Shown: positions 26,883-38,805, numbered from the stretch's first letter. The stretch is 45,819 bases of DNA from Bacteroidia bacterium (GCA_026391215.1 JAPLDX010000018.1:1-45819); one strand, 5' to 3'. A program made the numbers and translations. The notes: generated by a model from the letters alone, not told the origin.

Positions 26883-26889
26883 AAATATG

Positions 26890-26922
26890 AAAGAGGCGGT
26901 TTTGTACCGCCTCTTTTTTTTT
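26890..26922 (+). terminator. Intrinsic terminator after gldN (possibly bidirectional)
   Basis: Stem aaagaggcggt/accgcctcttt with a 5-nt loop and a T9 tract. Confidence 0.85.
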
Positions 26923-26927
26923 ATTCT

Positions 26928-28097
26928 CTACTTAATAAGGTACCATAGCTTCCCTAACCTGTGCGGATAATAAAGAATCGCTTTCCATCCACTGCTGCAA
27001 TTATACCTCTTTTTCATGAAACTAATTGAAGGGAAAAGATCCCCCAGGAGGAAAAGCATCTTTCTGTGAATTCCCGGAATCTCCTTCAACGTATTCCTGT
27101 ATGGTAATGCCTTATCAGGAGAAGGATTATTTTTCGGGCATTTTAGGAAGGATACAAACTTTTCAGCTGAATCAGGATTATGCCATTTTTCAATAAAACC
27201 ATCAAAAAATCCAGGGAAAGTTATTCCCCAGAAATCTCTCAGGATTTCAAGCTTCCCTGTAATTATTTCACTGATACCTGCCTGATCGGCTAACCCTGGC
27301 AGATCTTTGTTTATGATCTCATTCCTGAACCTGTCAAGCAGGACAACGAGATCGGTATAAAGCCGTAATTGTGATTCGTTGTTCATTTCATGGTAATGGA
27401 GATGTTTTACGAGGTAAAGAAATAAAAGCTTTGCTTTCGGGATATAAGTCCGCTCCCCGTTAATTTCTGTTTCAAAAGTGTCTTCATATAGCATTTTTGT
27501 CAGATCGTTTTTCCCGGCGCCGAAAAGCTCATGATGTATCTCTATTGAAAATCCGTTTTTAAGAAGTGAAGGCAGATGCTTCCCGGTATGCGTAATAATA
27601 AGATTATGAAAGTAAGACTTAACAGGCAGTGATTCAAATCCATCAGCCATCAGAAGCTCTCGTGCTTTTATACAGTTCTCCTTTGAGATAAGAACATCCA
27701 CATCTGTCATCTGCCGCAGCCCTTTATTCCCATAGACTGACATTTCAAGAGCCAGCCCCTTCAGAAGTACTGTTTTAATACCTGCCTTGTTCAGCAGATT
27801 CAGAACTCCTTTCATTTCACACATGTGTCTGGTATTCCTGGTAAGGCTCAGCATCAGGATGTTATGAAGAAATTTGGCTATCTCCTCTGGTATATACCGG
27901 AGAAATCCCAGCTCTTCGAGATTATGATATGCAAGTGCTCCCACTCCGTGTGCATTGGCAAGATCAGCAAAATATTTCCAGTCAACTGTTCCTGATACAC
28001 GGGTTTTTAATTTTTCTGTATGTTCACTGGAGAATTCAAGCCGGCATAACCCGATAAGCAATATCTCTTCGTTCCTTATAATAAGGTTATTGTTCAT
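26928..28097 (-). CDS. Nucleotidyltransferase family protein (NTP_transf_5-like)
   Basis: W......A..HGV, LLKGLAL...YG...LRQMTDVDVL (DxD), IEIHH, H...H and LRLYTD motifs. Confidence 0.85.
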   Translation of the reverse strand: MNNNLIIRNEEILLIGLCRLEFSSEHTEKLKTRVSGTVDWKYFADLANAHGVGALAYHNLEELGFLRYIPEEIAKFLHNILMLSLTRNTRHMCEMKGVLNLLNKAGIKTVLLKGLALEMSVYGNKGLRQMTDVDVLISKENCIKARELLMADGFESLPVKSYFHNLIITHTGKHLPSLLKNGFSIEIHHELFGAGKNDLTKMLYEDTFETEINGERTYIPKAKLLFLYLVKHLHYHEMNNESQLRLYTDLVVLLDRFRNEIINKDLPGLADQAGISEIITGKLEILRDFWGITFPGFFDGFIEKWHNPDSAEKFVSFLKCPKNNPSPDKALPYRNTLKEIPGIHRKMLFLLGDLFPSISFMKKRYNCSSGWKAILYYPHRLGKLWYLIK

Positions 28098-29881
28098 CTG
28101 GTAAATCTGCTCGTCTGTTTCGAGTACATGTTAAAGTACATTCCGCCCATCTTCATCAGCTCATCATGTGTCCCGGATTCAATAATCTTTCCCTTATCAA
28201 GCACCATGATCCTGTCAGCCAGGCTCACGTTGCTGAACCTGTGGCTGATAAGGATTGTGGTCCGTCCTTTTACAATGTTCCTGAACCTGCTGAAAATATC
28301 AAATTCAGTATCCGCATCGAGGGCGCTTGAGGGTTCATCGAGTATAAGTACCGGGGCGTCCCTGAAAAGAGCCCTGGCGAGAGCCAGCTTCTGCCATTCA
28401 CCCCAGCTGAGTTCGCGGCTGTCGTCAAATAGATTTCCTATTAAAGTGGAATATCCGTTCGGAAGATTCCTGATAAGATCATTTATACCGGTGATTGATG
28501 CGGCTGAACTTAGTTTCTCATCAGGATTTAATTCATCAATATTACCAAGCCTGATATTCTCTCCGGCATTAAGATTATAAAGCATAAAATCCTGGAATAC
28601 GACTGAGAAGAACTTCCTGTATTGCTCCGGATCCATATTCTTTATATCATTCCCGTCATATTTTATTGATCCTGAATCAGGGTCATATAGTCGGCAAAGA
28701 AGCCGTACAAGGGTGCTTTTCCCGGCGCCGTTCGGCCCTACCAAAGCCATTATTTCCCCTTTCTTTATCTCAAATGATATATTATCAATCGTACTGATTA
28801 GATTTCCAGGATAGGTAAAAGAAAGATTATCAGCAGAAATGCTCTTTTTAAGGGCTTCTGGCAAAACCACAGGCTGGACTGCCTGTATATTTTCCTTAAG
28901 GTTCAGAAACTCAAAGGTATCTCCAATAAAAAGAGAATCCTCGTAAAGTCCTGCCACAGAGCCAAGAAGATCTTTAATGCAGACCATACCCTGCCTGAAT
29001 GCCATAAGGAACATAGCCATCTGGCCCAGGGAAATTGTACCATCTACCGTACGGCTGGCAATGAACAAAAGAGTGACAAGGACGGCAGCTGCCTTGAAAA
29101 GATCGGATACAAGCTCTATTAAGGCTCGCTTTTTTACGATCCTTATCTCCTCTTCTTTAGTTTTCAGGAAAGATTTCCTGAAAAGTGAAATAAAATAATT
29201 CCCGAGTCCGAATAATCTGATCTCCCTTGAAGGGCGGTCGCCGGTCAGAAGCCAGTTAAAATAGGAGGTCTTCCTGGCTTCAGGAGTCTGCTGACGCTGA
29301 AAATTATAAAGTACTCCGGCATAATGCAGGCGGAGCCAGATTCCCGGGATATTGAAAACAAGAAGGAGCACTGCGATTGTCCAGTGGAGGGTTATAAGCA
29401 CTCCGGCCATAAGGATCAGCGACAGGAGTCCCCTGACCATTGAAACCAGGTTATTTAGTATACTGTTAGGCCGCCATGGAGCTTCCCTTGCAGCCCTGGC
29501 AAGACAATCAAAATATTCAGGTTTCTCAAAATTTATCAGGTCAAGTTTTACAGCTTTGGCATGAAGCAGATTATACATATATGCTTCGAGCTTCATTGAT
29601 TGTTTCTTGCGGACAAAATTGCCAAAGTCGGTAAAAGCTTCATCAAGGAACCAGACAATAACCACGGCTACGATGAGCCATATAATATTATCTATTGATG
29701 TTTGAGGTGCCTCCGATACAGCCCTGGTTATCCCATCTATCAAACCTTTCAGCAGCCATATCAGGACGAGCGGCAAAAAACTCCGTACAAGAGAAATGGA
29801 AAAGTTTGTCAGAGCCCAGCCCGGAGCACTTTGCCAGACAAGTTTAATGGCCTCCCTGAAGTATTTGATAGTCCGGTTCAT
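28094..29881 (-). CDS. ABC exporter, fused permease/ATPase (no C39 peptidase domain)
   Basis: N-terminal TM domain, Walker A GPNGAGKST, signature variant LSWGEWQ, Walker B LILDEP and ISHR switch. Confidence 0.93.
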   Translation of the reverse strand: MNRTIKYFREAIKLVWQSAPGWALTNFSISLVRSFLPLVLIWLLKGLIDGITRAVSEAPQTSIDNIIWLIVAVVIVWFLDEAFTDFGNFVRKKQSMKLEAYMYNLLHAKAVKLDLINFEKPEYFDCLARAAREAPWRPNSILNNLVSMVRGLLSLILMAGVLITLHWTIAVLLLVFNIPGIWLRLHYAGVLYNFQRQQTPEARKTSYFNWLLTGDRPSREIRLFGLGNYFISLFRKSFLKTKEEEIRIVKKRALIELVSDLFKAAAVLVTLLFIASRTVDGTISLGQMAMFLMAFRQGMVCIKDLLGSVAGLYEDSLFIGDTFEFLNLKENIQAVQPVVLPEALKKSISADNLSFTYPGNLISTIDNISFEIKKGEIMALVGPNGAGKSTLVRLLCRLYDPDSGSIKYDGNDIKNMDPEQYRKFFSVVFQDFMLYNLNAGENIRLGNIDELNPDEKLSSAASITGINDLIRNLPNGYSTLIGNLFDDSRELSWGEWQKLALARALFRDAPVLILDEPSSALDADTEFDIFSRFRNIVKGRTTILISHRFSNVSLADRIMVLDKGKIIESGTHDELMKMGGMYFNMYSKQTSRFTR

Positions 29882-29882
29882 A

Positions 29883-30335
29883 TTACCCTCTGTTTAATAC
29901 TTTCTTTAATCTGATTACAAACCAGACTAATAACCTGTTATAAAGATAATTGGGTTTACGGATAAGTTGATATCCGGATACTGTTCTTTTACCTGGTGCG
30001 CTTTCAACGCGGACAACTTTTCCCGCAACCTGATCTTTTAATACCGGCTGATCCTCATAAGCGCAGCTGTCGCCCCTGGTAATAAAGAATGTCTTACCCT
30101 CTTCACTGGTAATCCTTTTTAACCTGTGAACAACAAAACCTGCGTCTCTCTTCCATGATATGACTTCACCCGGAGCAGGATACTGATCATCAATAACAGG
30201 TTCTATATAAATTACAGATCCTGGTTTTATGGCAGGGTACATGCTGTAACCATCTGCTCTTATCCTGATGGTTTTACCCTCAGCCAGCAGAGAGAATCCA
30301 ACCTCCTTTACCATGTTATGATTGTCTCTGTTCAT
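29883..30335 (-). CDS. S24/S26-family (signal peptidase I-like) peptidase without membrane anchor
   Basis: GYSMYP (catalytic Ser), VVHR (His general base, SipW/ER type) and TRGD..D. No N-terminal hydrophobic helix. Start 30335 or 30314. Confidence 0.82.
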   Translation of the reverse strand: MNRDNHNMVKEVGFSLLAEGKTIRIRADGYSMYPAIKPGSVIYIEPVIDDQYPAPGEVISWKRDAGFVVHRLKRITSEEGKTFFITRGDSCAYEDQPVLKDQVAGKVVRVESAPGKRTVSGYQLIRKPNYLYNRLLVWFVIRLKKVLNRG

Positions 30336-31215
30336 TTTCCAGGATAAATTCAATTACACTTCTGTCAGGCCGGAAAAAAAGTTTTGCAGCCGGAACGGAT
30401 GCAATCATTGCTGATACTGAATCAAGAAGCCTGGCAATTATTCCAGGATCCCAGTTATGCTGAATGCAATTCGCCATTATCATGCTTACACTTTCAGCGT
30501 CTTTCACCGGGACTATTTCGTTCCTCTCTCCATGTTCAATAATGAATATCCTGTCAAGTCTGGATCTATTTGGAACATCATTATTATATACCGGTGTATT
30601 GTACATGACATAACTCCTGCCTTCTCTGCGGAGGATAAGCCTGTCATCGTGGATGATCCTGGCGTCCTCCTTATCCCAGAGCTTTGCCATGGTTGTTTTC
30701 CCCTTGCCTGAAACACCGCAGAAAAGAAAGCCGTGACCGGCATGATCTGCTCCAGAAGCATGGATCATGATATCGCCATGAACCACAGTAAGGTAATAAA
30801 GGATCAATCCGTCAAGAGGATATTCCATCGGATCGGATTCTTTATTCGTATTATCGAACCATAGATCCCAGTCTTTTCCTGTAAGTGAATATTGCAAAAT
30901 CGCTTCCTTCCTTTCAGCTGAGCCAGGAAAGATAATTTTAATGAACAGATCATCATTGTATTTATAAATGCTCCAGAAATCATCATTTTTTTTTATGCGA
31001 ATACCATTCAGCTCTTCAACAAATGGAGCATCAAATACTTTTTCAGCCCGGTGAGGAAGAATAAACTGGCCGGAATGAACCCGGATCAGAATATCGGGTT
31101 TGTTTTCAAAACAGATGTACCCGGTCAATCTTTCAGAAGGAACCAATTCAGGTCCGTCAGTACCGCTTTCAAATCTGATATTATACCCGGCGATATTTAA
31201 ATTATAACCTTTCAT
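30316..31215 (-). CDS. HPr-kinase-related P-loop kinase (lasso-peptide-kinase/ScmC-like)
   Basis: IHASG (His), Walker A GVSGKGKTT and IHDDR (Asp-Asp) give the His-Lys-Asp-Asp pattern of HprK-like kinases. Confidence 0.75.
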   Translation of the reverse strand: MKGYNLNIAGYNIRFESGTDGPELVPSERLTGYICFENKPDILIRVHSGQFILPHRAEKVFDAPFVEELNGIRIKKNDDFWSIYKYNDDLFIKIIFPGSAERKEAILQYSLTGKDWDLWFDNTNKESDPMEYPLDGLILYYLTVVHGDIMIHASGADHAGHGFLFCGVSGKGKTTMAKLWDKEDARIIHDDRLILRREGRSYVMYNTPVYNNDVPNRSRLDRIFIIEHGERNEIVPVKDAESVSMIMANCIQHNWDPGIIARLLDSVSAMIASVPAAKLFFRPDRSVIEFILENEQRQS

Positions 31216-31226
31216 TCTTCGTTCTT

Positions 31227-31287
31227 CCTTTGTGTTGCACTTTGTACTCCTGTGTGGTTATTTTTATACCACTAAGGGACACTAAGG
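31227..31287. repeat. CTTTGTG-periodic inverted repeat (family 2) inside the cassette
   Basis: Left arm cctttgtgttgcactttgtactcctgtgtggt and right arm accactaagggacactaagg. The left arm resembles 192-233. Confidence 0.55.
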
Positions 31288-31304
31288 ATATATGCTGTTT
31301 TTCA

Positions 31305-31592
31305 TTATTCTTTGATAATAAGGTATTTTGTCATTTCACTGAAAAATTCAAAAACATCGTTTGTTGCGTTCTTTTCATCAATATCATATTCTCTTATAAG
31401 GGCTTCAATCATATCTTCAACATTGGTTTCACCATCAATCAGTTCCCAGAGAAAAGCTCCGGTTTCATTAAGAGTATAGACACTGTTCATATCGGCAATA
31501 TTGTTGGTAACAGGAACAAGCACATATTCTTTCCCTGTTTTCCGTGTAACAACAGAAGGCGAATGCAGGGGGACAGATTTCAGATCAATCAT
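31305..31592 (-). CDS. Stand-alone PqqD-family protein (RiPP recognition element)
   Basis: About 95 aa with V.R..G.E.VLVP, YTLNETGAFLWELIDG, L..EYD and DV.EF motifs. Start 31592 or 31601; the track's TTG at 31613 lies inside the -7 element. Confidence 0.9.
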   Translation of the reverse strand: MIDLKSVPLHSPSVVTRKTGKEYVLVPVTNNIADMNSVYTLNETGAFLWELIDGETNVEDMIEALIREYDIDEKNATNDVFEFFSEMTKYLIIKE

Positions 31593-31610
31593 ATATACCA
31601 TATTATAAAT

Positions 31611-31618
31611 CAAATTTA
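31611..31618 (-). promoter_or_regulatory. -7 element (TAAATTTG) driving the PqqD cassette
   Basis: TAnnTTTG on the minus strand just upstream of the PqqD gene, back-to-back with a TACCTTCG variant (31641-31648) before rnr. Confidence 0.55.
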
Positions 31619-37153: not shown

Positions 37154-37195
37154 TTCCCACAAATCAAATATTCCTTCCTTTTAAGGGTGTTTGGT

Positions 37196-37308
37196 TTTTA
37201 TTAAGAAGGGCGGAGAGAATAGGCTCTGCGAAACCCTGGCAACCAACCCCGAGTACTCGGGGGAACGGTGCCAAAACCTAATCCCGGAAAAGCCGGGAGA
37301 TGATAAAA
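37196..37308 (+). ncRNA. SAM-I (S-box) riboswitch aptamer
   Basis: P1 TTTTATTA/TGATAAAA; P2 GGG-CGGAGAG..CTCT-GCGAAA-CCC; loop TAGG pairing with CCTA as the pseudoknot; P3 TGGCAACC..GGTGCCA; P4 TCCCGG/CCGGGA. Upstream of met genes. Confidence 0.9.
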
Positions 37309-37323
37309 ATAAACACGGAAACA

Positions 37324-37447: not shown

Positions 37448-38805
<1,358 letters not shown>

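Follow-up and report, generated by a model that had tools for sequence, protein, structure and literature searches.

Linear polyphosphorylated peptides (LPPs) are the products of the lpp family of peptides that are made on ribosomes and modified after translation (RiPPs), described by Popov et al. (Nat Commun, 20 May 2026; PMC13381572). According to the text of that paper, the model cluster is that of Paenibacillus alginolyticus DSM5050, with counterparts in related Bacillota, and its core comprises a RiPP recognition element (RRE; LppB), a kinase (LppK), a signal peptidase I (SpI)-like peptidase (LppS), an exporter (LppD), and a nucleoside triphosphate (NTP) transferase (LppN), but no cyclase. 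LppK adds up to four phosphates to Ser3 of the core peptide, and LppS, whose residues S29, H68, and D93 were proven by mutation, removes the leader only if LppB is present. The precursor leader follows the pattern YxxPxVLxHQxIxFETxxS. LPPs and paeninodins are called 'restricted to the Bacillota' there; the clusters sit in capsule loci, and the role of LPPs is given as unknown. Here, we describe an operon of a Bacteroidia bacterium (GCA_026391215.1, JAPLDX010000018.1:1-45819) that, judged by its sequence, matches the lpp core gene set with the same five functions: RRE, kinase, peptidase, exporter, and an NTP_transf_5 enzyme. The stretch analysed, hereafter called the window, is an entire contig of 45,819 nt from an assembly (G000) of 3.39 Mb in 135 contigs that is 98.9% complete.

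We propose that this operon encodes one half of an LPP-type RiPP pathway, namely processing and export, and represents a Bacteroidota version with the precursor gene located outside the operon, and put the probability of this reading at about 0.7. A text search of PMC13381572 for 'Bacteroid' gave 0 matches; the supplementary SpI listing by phylum lay outside this search and may hold non-Bacillota entries. Searches of the literature, which did not extend to the supplements of that paper, turned up no other LPP paper and none on such a cluster in Bacteroidota. A first-pass annotation of the window had suggested a cyclase-free pathway that would bind, phosphorylate, nucleotidylate, cleave, and export a peptide, with a product not known to be characterised. 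Its observation is confirmed and its inference is supported in substance, since the architecture is the one shown experimentally for the LPP family (PMC13381572). With the description of that family, the product class no longer counts as uncharacterised, and the nucleotidylation step has become doubtful, because PsmN of the pseudomycoidin lasso pathway, the only homologue for which an effect has been shown, is needed for hexose addition (PMC6993621) and LppN was inactive (PMC13381572).

The operon and its five proteins

The operon consists of five open reading frames (ORFs) on the minus strand between gldN and rnr, which were recovered at the positions given in the first-pass annotation and match the expected families. 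Bit scores of the five proteins refer to Pfam and NCBIfam (TIGR) family models.

31305..31592, minus strand: discrete RRE of the PqqD family, 95 aa, LppB/B1 equivalent; PF05402, 67.3 bits (cut-off 23.4)
30316..31215, minus strand: HprK-like P-loop kinase, 299 aa, LppK equivalent; motifs and weak family matches
29883..30335, minus strand: putative anchorless archaeal/endoplasmic reticulum-type signal peptidase I (S24/S26), 150 aa, LppS equivalent; presumed leader peptidase
28094..29881, minus strand: MsbA-like ABC half-transporter, 595 aa, LppD equivalent; ABC_tran, 116.9 bits, and ABC_membrane, 33.1 bits
26928..28097, minus strand: NTP_transf_5 enzyme, 389 aa, LppN/PsmN equivalent; PF14907, 145.6 bits

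Four of the genes abut or overlap, as had been noted before: the kinase and peptidase genes overlap, the peptidase and ABC transporter genes are separated by 1 nt, and the latter shares 4 nt with the NTP_transf_5 gene. The gap between the PqqD and kinase genes measures 89 nt.

The ORF of the RRE spans 31305-31613, with ATG 31592 as the likeliest start (two related loci, L067 and L093, have stop codons upstream of it). Among the RRE columns of 42 sequences, only N42 and D79 are invariant. In a profile alignment to the LppB chain 9x8z_B, these residues correspond to N33 and D70, respectively, and F83 of the window protein corresponds to F74. In LppB, N33 fixes the kink at P-13 of the leader, D70 forms a hydrogen bond with leader Y-16, and F74 sandwiches the proline (PMC13381572). 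Judged by this alignment, the RRE keeps the residues that hold the leader Tyr and Pro in the LppB crystal structure.

The peptidase scored 57.9 bits with TIGR02228, above the cut-off of 51.85, and 23.1 bits with PF00717, for which the cut-off is 23.3. The ORF extends over 29883-30353, and ATG 30335 is the likeliest start, as relatives have stop codons upstream of this position. With this start, about 30 residues precede the catalytic Ser and the protein has no N-terminal membrane anchor, which agrees with the first-pass annotation. S31 and H70 are invariant in 40 sequences and D95 is conserved in at least 90% of them; the Ser-His and His-Asp spacings of 39 and 25 residues are identical to those of S29/H68/D93 in LppS. 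A homologue search with the peptidase returned members of the same clade only (named signal peptidase I, S24/S26 family peptidase, or hypothetical protein) and no bridge to the Bacillota. Co-folding, a check suggested in the first pass, gave a score of 0.57 for the predicted peptidase-RRE complex, compared with 0.01 for the best of three controls; the runs agreed in at least 97% of contacts, and the predicted local distance difference test (pLDDT) value of the partner was at least 84. Of 80 solved complexes, 58 attained the mark used for such scores, as did 2 of 110 mismatched pairs; with a score of 0.60 or less, only 7 of the 80 solved complexes attained it, along with both passing mismatches. 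The predicted complex lends weak support to the LPP-type reading.

Family matches of the kinase were weak and far below the cut-offs (TIGR04355, 26.7 bits with a cut-off of 200; TIGR04249, 25.6 bits), and TIGR04352 was not among them. Across 16 relatives, the motifs H152-A-S-G, G167xSGxGK173T, and D190-D191-R192 show no or almost no variation. The best match in the PDB was HprK (1jb1), with an alignment running across exactly the H152ASG, P-loop, and DDR motifs (E value 0.085).

The best NCBIfam match of the exporter was MsbA, and it carries no C39 peptidase domain. One related locus (L161, 9860-12133, plus strand) encodes a single 757-aa ORF in which an S24-type peptidase domain is fused to the N-terminus of an MsbA-like exporter, which suggests that leader cleavage is coupled to export. 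C39-domain peptidase-containing ABC exporters likewise have a leader peptidase domain on the N-terminus of the exporter, but the domain of L161 is of the serine S24/S26 type and not a cysteine peptidase, and in the window peptidase and exporter are separate genes. The NTP_transf_5 enzyme carries a DVD motif at positions 132-134 (D132xD134). In PsmN, D134 and D136 are required for the addition of a hexose to the phosphate of the lasso peptide, as stated in PMC6993621.

A family search of assembly G000 yielded one PqqD and one NTP_transf_5 protein. The first-pass statement that lasso cyclase and B2 protease are missing holds for the whole assembly: PF13471 (B2 transglutaminase-like) gave 0 matches, and the matches to PF00733 (Asn_synthase), all of them elsewhere in the genome, reached only 42.9, 25.1, and 22.9 bits, so that no credible macrolactam synthetase was found.

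Two further elements delimit the operon:

31611..31618, minus strand: candidate promoter box TAAATTTG, 18 nt before ATG 31592 and inside the 72-nt divergent spacer shared with rnr
26889-26917, between gldN and the NTP_transf_5 gene: terminator-like bidirectional hairpin with 12 pairs, 6 of them G-C, and T runs on both strands

The box conforms to TAnnTTTG, which we take to be the Bacteroidota-type -7 promoter consensus. The first-pass annotation had assigned the operon a promoter of this kind; a box is indeed present, but the window shows no excess of such motifs (30 matches vs 41.6 expected), and the match alone is no proof of a promoter. A scan of the window for sigma-70 promoters was no better than chance (17 vs 13.8). 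The terminator-like hairpin probably closes the operon against gldN. Elsewhere in the window, a SAM riboswitch (RF00162, 74.6 bits) lies at 37195-37309 on the plus strand, in a 567-nt gap 5' of a 434-aa ORF starting at 37502.

Conservation of the cassette

Of 24 genomes sampled from the same uncultured Bacteroidales genus, 21 had the kinase, which was also present in 2 of 16 other families of the order. We mapped 20 of these loci by tblastn and found ispG, divergent rnr, PqqD, kinase, S24, and ABC in that order, as far as the contigs reach; an NTP_transf_5 gene followed in eight of them. An independent scan of species-representative genomes gave 80 loci, which overlap the first set and all bear titles of uncultured Bacteroidales or related bins. 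Where the flanks were long enough, the kinase was preceded by PqqD in every case (75/75) and followed by S24 in 72/75 and by the ABC transporter in 67/67. The NTP_transf_5 gene was full-length in 28 of 59 related cassettes and left a remnant in three more. Recurrence of the gene set without a cyclase had been named beforehand as the test of the first-pass annotation, and the set does recur, NTP_transf_5 being its variable member. The divergent rnr gene was found upstream of the cassette in all 67 loci that could be judged. The cassette of the window abuts the gldL/M/N genes; adjacency to gldN was seen only there and in one other locus (L053).

Median ratios of nonsynonymous to synonymous substitution rates (dN/dS; Nei-Gojobori method, pairs with dS of 0.05-1.5) were 0.164 for PqqD, 0.082 for the kinase, 0.218 for S24, 0.076 for ABC, and 0.149 for NTP_transf_5, compared with 0.046 for rnr, and the reading frames are intact in more than 65 species. 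Because all five genes are under purifying selection, the cassette is kept by selection and is not a decaying remnant. Beyond the genus, the kinase profile detected 60 of 401 genomes from 47 of 236 genera in the order sample (E value of at most 1e-10) and 27 of 401 genomes, many of them weakly, in the phylum sample (E value of at most 1e-5).

The inserts found between rnr and PqqD in five loci contain ORFs unlike the cluster genes, as read by eye from their translations. By the same kind of reading, ORFs in inserts and downstream of cassettes without NTP_transf_5 were glycoside-hydrolase-like, epimerase-like, histidine-kinase-like, and outer-membrane-like. No cyclase or radical S-adenosylmethionine (SAM) gene was noticed among the ORFs of six gaps and 16 downstream flanks, which were read by eye and without a Pfam scan. 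Downstream of the cassette, on the same strand, 45 of the 80 loci (including L059, L061, L064, and L065) carry a conserved helix-turn-helix-like ORF of 68-77 aa that is not found in the window. Farther downstream, small bacteriocin-like ORFs with GG leaders occur in some loci (L076, L077, L081), again not in the window.

The longest gap within the operon proved to be a site of insertion in related loci:

31216..31304, no strand assigned: PqqD-kinase spacer, 89 nt, with a tandem octamer CACTAAGG and matching CACAAAGG-type repeats; no precursor gene

In three relatives (L033, L037, L049), a GxxExxY gene (TIGR04256, 122.9 bits) sits in this spacer, with CACTAAGG/CACAAAGG-type repeats on either side. 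The repeats in the spacer of the window would thus be the footprint of a GxxExxY insertion site, resembling an empty or excised one. We rejected the PqqD-kinase spacer as a precursor site, since in relatives it ranges from -7 to 605 nt in length and it holds either GxxExxY genes or repeat footprints. The S24-ABC spacers, which are variable, filled with repeats, and devoid of a conserved ORF, were likewise rejected.

A precursor family in related genomes

Outside the genus, a small ORF with a YxKP leader adjoins the RRE or kinase gene in 15 of the 25 loci of the order sample, for which flanks of 1.5 kb were searched, and also in L161, L164, and L050. The consensus of this linked precursor, derived from 17 aligned sequences, is K..Y.KP..E.I.ID..ISL.M.S.PPGDP, with invariant Y, P, and D; it has no match among NCBIfam models. 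Whole-genome searches with the precursor alignment detected a homologue in all five large or closed assemblies of the genus, with E values from 5e-11 to 8e-19. In overlapping genome sets, the precursor was found in 29 of 60 genus genomes and in one of the five closest relatives of the window. It is unlinked in the genus, being located 78-86 kb from the cassette in three chromosomes. The genus precursor has about 55-65 aa and follows the consensus KK.Y.KPE[IV]..I.LDNSISLVMMT..PPNPPPRGGGSKG.DTPFQSPFGDKPF[GS], with a proline-rich core that ends in PFQSPFGDKPF[GS]. The term 'orphan' in the first-pass annotation is therefore correct for the locus and for this assembly, but not for the genus, which has an unlinked precursor.

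The genomic setting of the precursor is recurrent. In 25 of 30 loci, the gene in front of it encodes the C-terminal sorting domain PF18962 of the type IX secretion system (T9SS), for which we examined the 120 C-terminal residues of the ORF that ends, on the same strand, no more than 700 nt upstream. The 30 loci comprise 17 genus-level and 13 other ones drawn from L204-L222, L181-L203, and L161; left out were L220 (same place as L206), L209 (weak match), and four loci without such an upstream ORF in the sequence covered. Near the precursors of L223 and L227, there is a NusG-like (NusG/UpxY-like) gene together with a Bac_transf sugar transferase gene, and such polysaccharide genes echo the capsule-locus setting of the LPP clusters in Bacillota. 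In genomes whose cassette lacks NTP_transf_5, the only ones examined in this respect, a homologue 34-36% identical to that of the window was found 3-6 kb from the precursor in five cases (G818, G822, G004, G015, G024). Two more genomes were checked: G005 (79% complete) has no NTP_transf_5 copy, and the copy of G008 belongs to a lasso cluster.

Taken together, the Bacteroidales system resembles the LPP system in its five functions and missing cyclase, in the identical peptidase Ser/His/Asp spacing, in the leader-contact residues of the RRE and, in relatives, in the YxxPx[ILV] leader of the precursor and the linkage to polysaccharide genes. It differs in several respects. The host belongs to the diderm Bacteroidota, whereas LPPs were called restricted to Bacillota; the gene order is B-K-S-D-N instead of A-K-B-S-D-N; and the precursor is unlinked in the genus and was not found in this genome, whereas the published cluster holds it. 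The leader of the Bacteroidales precursors reads YxKPxIxxIxIDxxISLxMxS and is followed by a proline-rich core. In addition, the cassette occupies one fixed chromosomal position across the genus, in contrast to the patchy gain and loss reported for Bacilli. A T9SS cargo gene precedes that of the precursor, and the NTP_transf_5 gene belongs to the cassette in some cases and to the precursor locus in others.

Related systems and alternative explanations

The operon also shares components with other described systems. The paeninodin and pseudomycoidin lasso pathways (PadeK/PsmK, PsmN; PMC6993621) likewise combine a B1-type RRE, an HprK-like Ser kinase, an NTP_transf_5 enzyme, and an ABC exporter, but locus and genome of the window lack the macrolactam synthetase and the B2 cysteine protease and have a serine peptidase instead. 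Lasso clusters do occur in the genus. A complete paeninodin-like cluster, assigned by Pfam, lies within a glycosyltransferase locus of G024 (L234:4615-10840); it consists of Hpr_kinase_C-like, NTP_transf_5, Asn_synthase, Transglut_core3, and PqqD genes and a 44-aa ORF with a WNRP leader (L234:6795-6929). The same gene order is present in G008 (L233:9306-14224), where the ORF translations were judged by eye. With these two clusters, the genus has leaders of both the WxxP (lasso) and the YxxP (LPP-like) type, as has been reported for Bacilli.

SynChlorMet and the HPr-rel-A/HprK_rel_B cassettes (TIGR04248-04252, TIGR04352-04355) have a comparable pair of PqqD-like and HprK-like proteins in a small peptide-maturation cassette. 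The window proteins score far below the corresponding cut-offs (ScmD, 33.1 vs 100 bits; ScmC, 25.6 vs 125; HprK_rel_B, 26.7 vs 200), and no ScmE/ScmF radical SAM/SPASM gene was noticed when the flanks and inserts of the genus were read by eye. One weak match to the kinase profile (L176, G066) belongs to a genuine SynChlorMet cassette, which differs in appearance from the operon and has ScmF (557.6 bits), two ScmC genes, a ScmD gene, and an ORF weakly resembling ScmA. Kinases that are only distantly related (E values from 1e-15 to 1e-22 with the kinase profile) and come from another family of the phylum are located in hybrid clusters with radical SAM genes (L166-L172). L167 contains, according to Pfam, a GNAT gene and as many as three radical SAM genes, including one that is fused N-terminally to an HprK-like domain; the radical SAM-kinase fusion occurs in L167 and L169-L172, and S24, NTP_transf_5, and ABC were matched by tblastn across the hybrid group. 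Near these clusters, there are ORFs with WxxPx[LI] leaders and Cys-rich cores ending in Ser. The first-pass statement that radical SAM enzymes are missing agrees with the flanks and inserts read in the genus; the distant relatives do have such enzymes.

Several observations weigh against an LPP-type pathway. The flanks of the 80 genus-level loci, covered to at most 9 kb per side, contained no precursor, and the whole-genome search did not find one in 31 of 60 genus genomes and four of the five closest relatives, some of which are 97-100% complete. Window and G000 yielded no precursor by motifs, by two hidden Markov models (best E values in G000 1.6 and 0.2), and by a profile search. Bacteroidales leaders share only YxxPx[ILV] with the Bacillota consensus YxxPxVLxHQxIxFETxxS. 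In the model system, LppN had no detectable activity, and deletion of lppN changed nothing (PMC13381572). Moreover, the RRE profile scores LppB with only 29.6 bits, below TfuB1 (30.4), PbaB1 (32.7), and TbiB1 (34.3). Because the RRE similarity to LppB is weak, the operon may descend from the lpp family or may have been put together in parallel from parts of the lasso type; sequence similarity to Bacillota Lpp proteins was compared for the RRE only, by means of the PDB chain, and the other proteins were likened by function and motif.

The hunt for a precursor in G000 by motifs and hidden Markov models produced only artefacts, namely one match antisense to an 815-aa ORF, a carrier-protein-like ORF, and three paralogous matches antisense to the 5' ends of large-protein genes. 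Searching G000 by tblastn with the precursors and neighbouring genes of relatives recovered only a ubiX-like gene and one other neighbour, neither beside a precursor; three further genes that neighbour it in relatives, those for a 552-aa protein, a NusG-like protein, and a sugar transferase, were not found.

Against this background, the cassette might be truly orphaned in this genome and its closest relatives, with the YxKP precursor lost and the enzymes serving another substrate or having recently become idle. The absence of the precursor from the 98.9% complete G000, from four of its five closest relatives, and from the 97-100% complete genus genomes G008, G012, G013, and G014 is what such a loss would produce, as is the simultaneous absence of the precursor-flanking genes from G000. 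Nevertheless, the precursor is there in each of the five long or closed genus assemblies and missing from about half of the short-read bins, so that we consider a binning or assembly gap more likely than loss. Lying after a large gene for T9SS cargo, with polysaccharide genes as neighbours, the precursor may simply be missed by such bins. In the window, neither the leader-binding residues of the RRE nor any of the catalytic residues have been lost. We therefore regard a genuine orphan as unlikely, if by no means far-fetched.

A decayed lasso or radical-SAM cluster that has lost its scaffold enzyme and is now drifting would also leave a cyclase-free set, since kinase, NTP_transf_5, RRE, and ABC exporter are standard parts of paeninodin-type clusters. 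Two members of the genus do carry lasso clusters (one assigned by Pfam, the other by eye), up to three radical SAM genes accompany distant kinase relatives, and roughly half of the cassettes lack NTP_transf_5, three of them having a remnant. Decay, however, does not fit with purifying selection on all five genes and intact frames in more than 65 species, nor with the fixed position beside rnr (67/67 loci), and no cyclase, B2 protease, or radical SAM gene was noticed with the genus cassette in the flanks and insertions read by eye. As grounds for refuting its reading, the first-pass annotation had named a lasso cyclase or radical SAM gene recurring at homologous loci, which would mark a remnant, or a lack of synteny elsewhere; neither was seen at the genus-level loci. 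A cyclase-free set is functional by itself in the published LPP system (PMC13381572), and in five genomes with no NTP_transf_5 gene in the cassette, a copy is located at a distance of 3-6 kb from the precursor. Decay can hence be given almost no credence. Alternatively, there may be no peptide pathway at all, and an MsbA-like flippase, a nucleotidyltransferase, and a kinase would act on an envelope intermediate, either a lipid or a polysaccharide, PqqD and S24 being accessory proteins. MsbA as the best NCBIfam match of the exporter points in this direction, and so do the NusG/UpxY-like and Bac_transf genes beside the precursor locus of relatives and the position of published LPP clusters in capsule loci (PMC13381572). 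Against it, the leader-contact residues of the RRE are exactly retained, as is the catalytic triad of the peptidase; in many families, the cassette is accompanied by a conserved peptide of the YxxP type, and the homologous set of Bacillota acts on a peptide (PMC13381572). An envelope pathway of this kind appears to us very improbable.

Proposed pathway and its significance

For the LPP-type pathway that we favour, the following sequence of events can be envisaged, its sole direct support being the conserved catalytic and binding residues. The 95-aa RRE would bind the YxxP leader of the substrate, which in relatives may be the peptide of about 55-65 aa with a YxKP leader encoded directly after a T9SS cargo gene. 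The HprK-like kinase would then place one or more phosphates on a Ser or Thr near the leader-core junction, and the anchorless SpI-like Ser/His/Asp peptidase would cut the leader off the substrate presented by the RRE. NTP_transf_5 may decorate the phosphate further, possibly with a hexose, before the MsbA-like pump would carry the product across the inner membrane.

What is new in comparison with the described systems is the precursor family of the Bacteroidales, the arrangement in split loci, and the recurrent link to T9SS cargo genes. LPP-type machinery thereby extends to diderm bacteria, with a testable lead to a function at the surface or in secretion. Precursor-enzyme pairs are now concrete for expression, and cluster-based RiPP mining tools will miss a precursor that lies about 80 kb from its enzymes. 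More tentatively, and as a possibility rather than an expectation, the LPP-like pathway of the Bacteroidales could be vertically inherited, physiological, and tied to the cell surface instead of a sporadic weapon: a phosphorylated proline-rich peptide, encoded just behind a T9SS cargo gene and next to polysaccharide genes, would be matured in trans by a cassette at a distance of tens of kilobases and pumped to the periplasm, where it might act on or become attached to T9SS cargo or surface glycans, and the same core of kinase, RRE, and peptidase would have been recruited into the radical-SAM hybrids for Cys-rich peptides with a terminal Ser.

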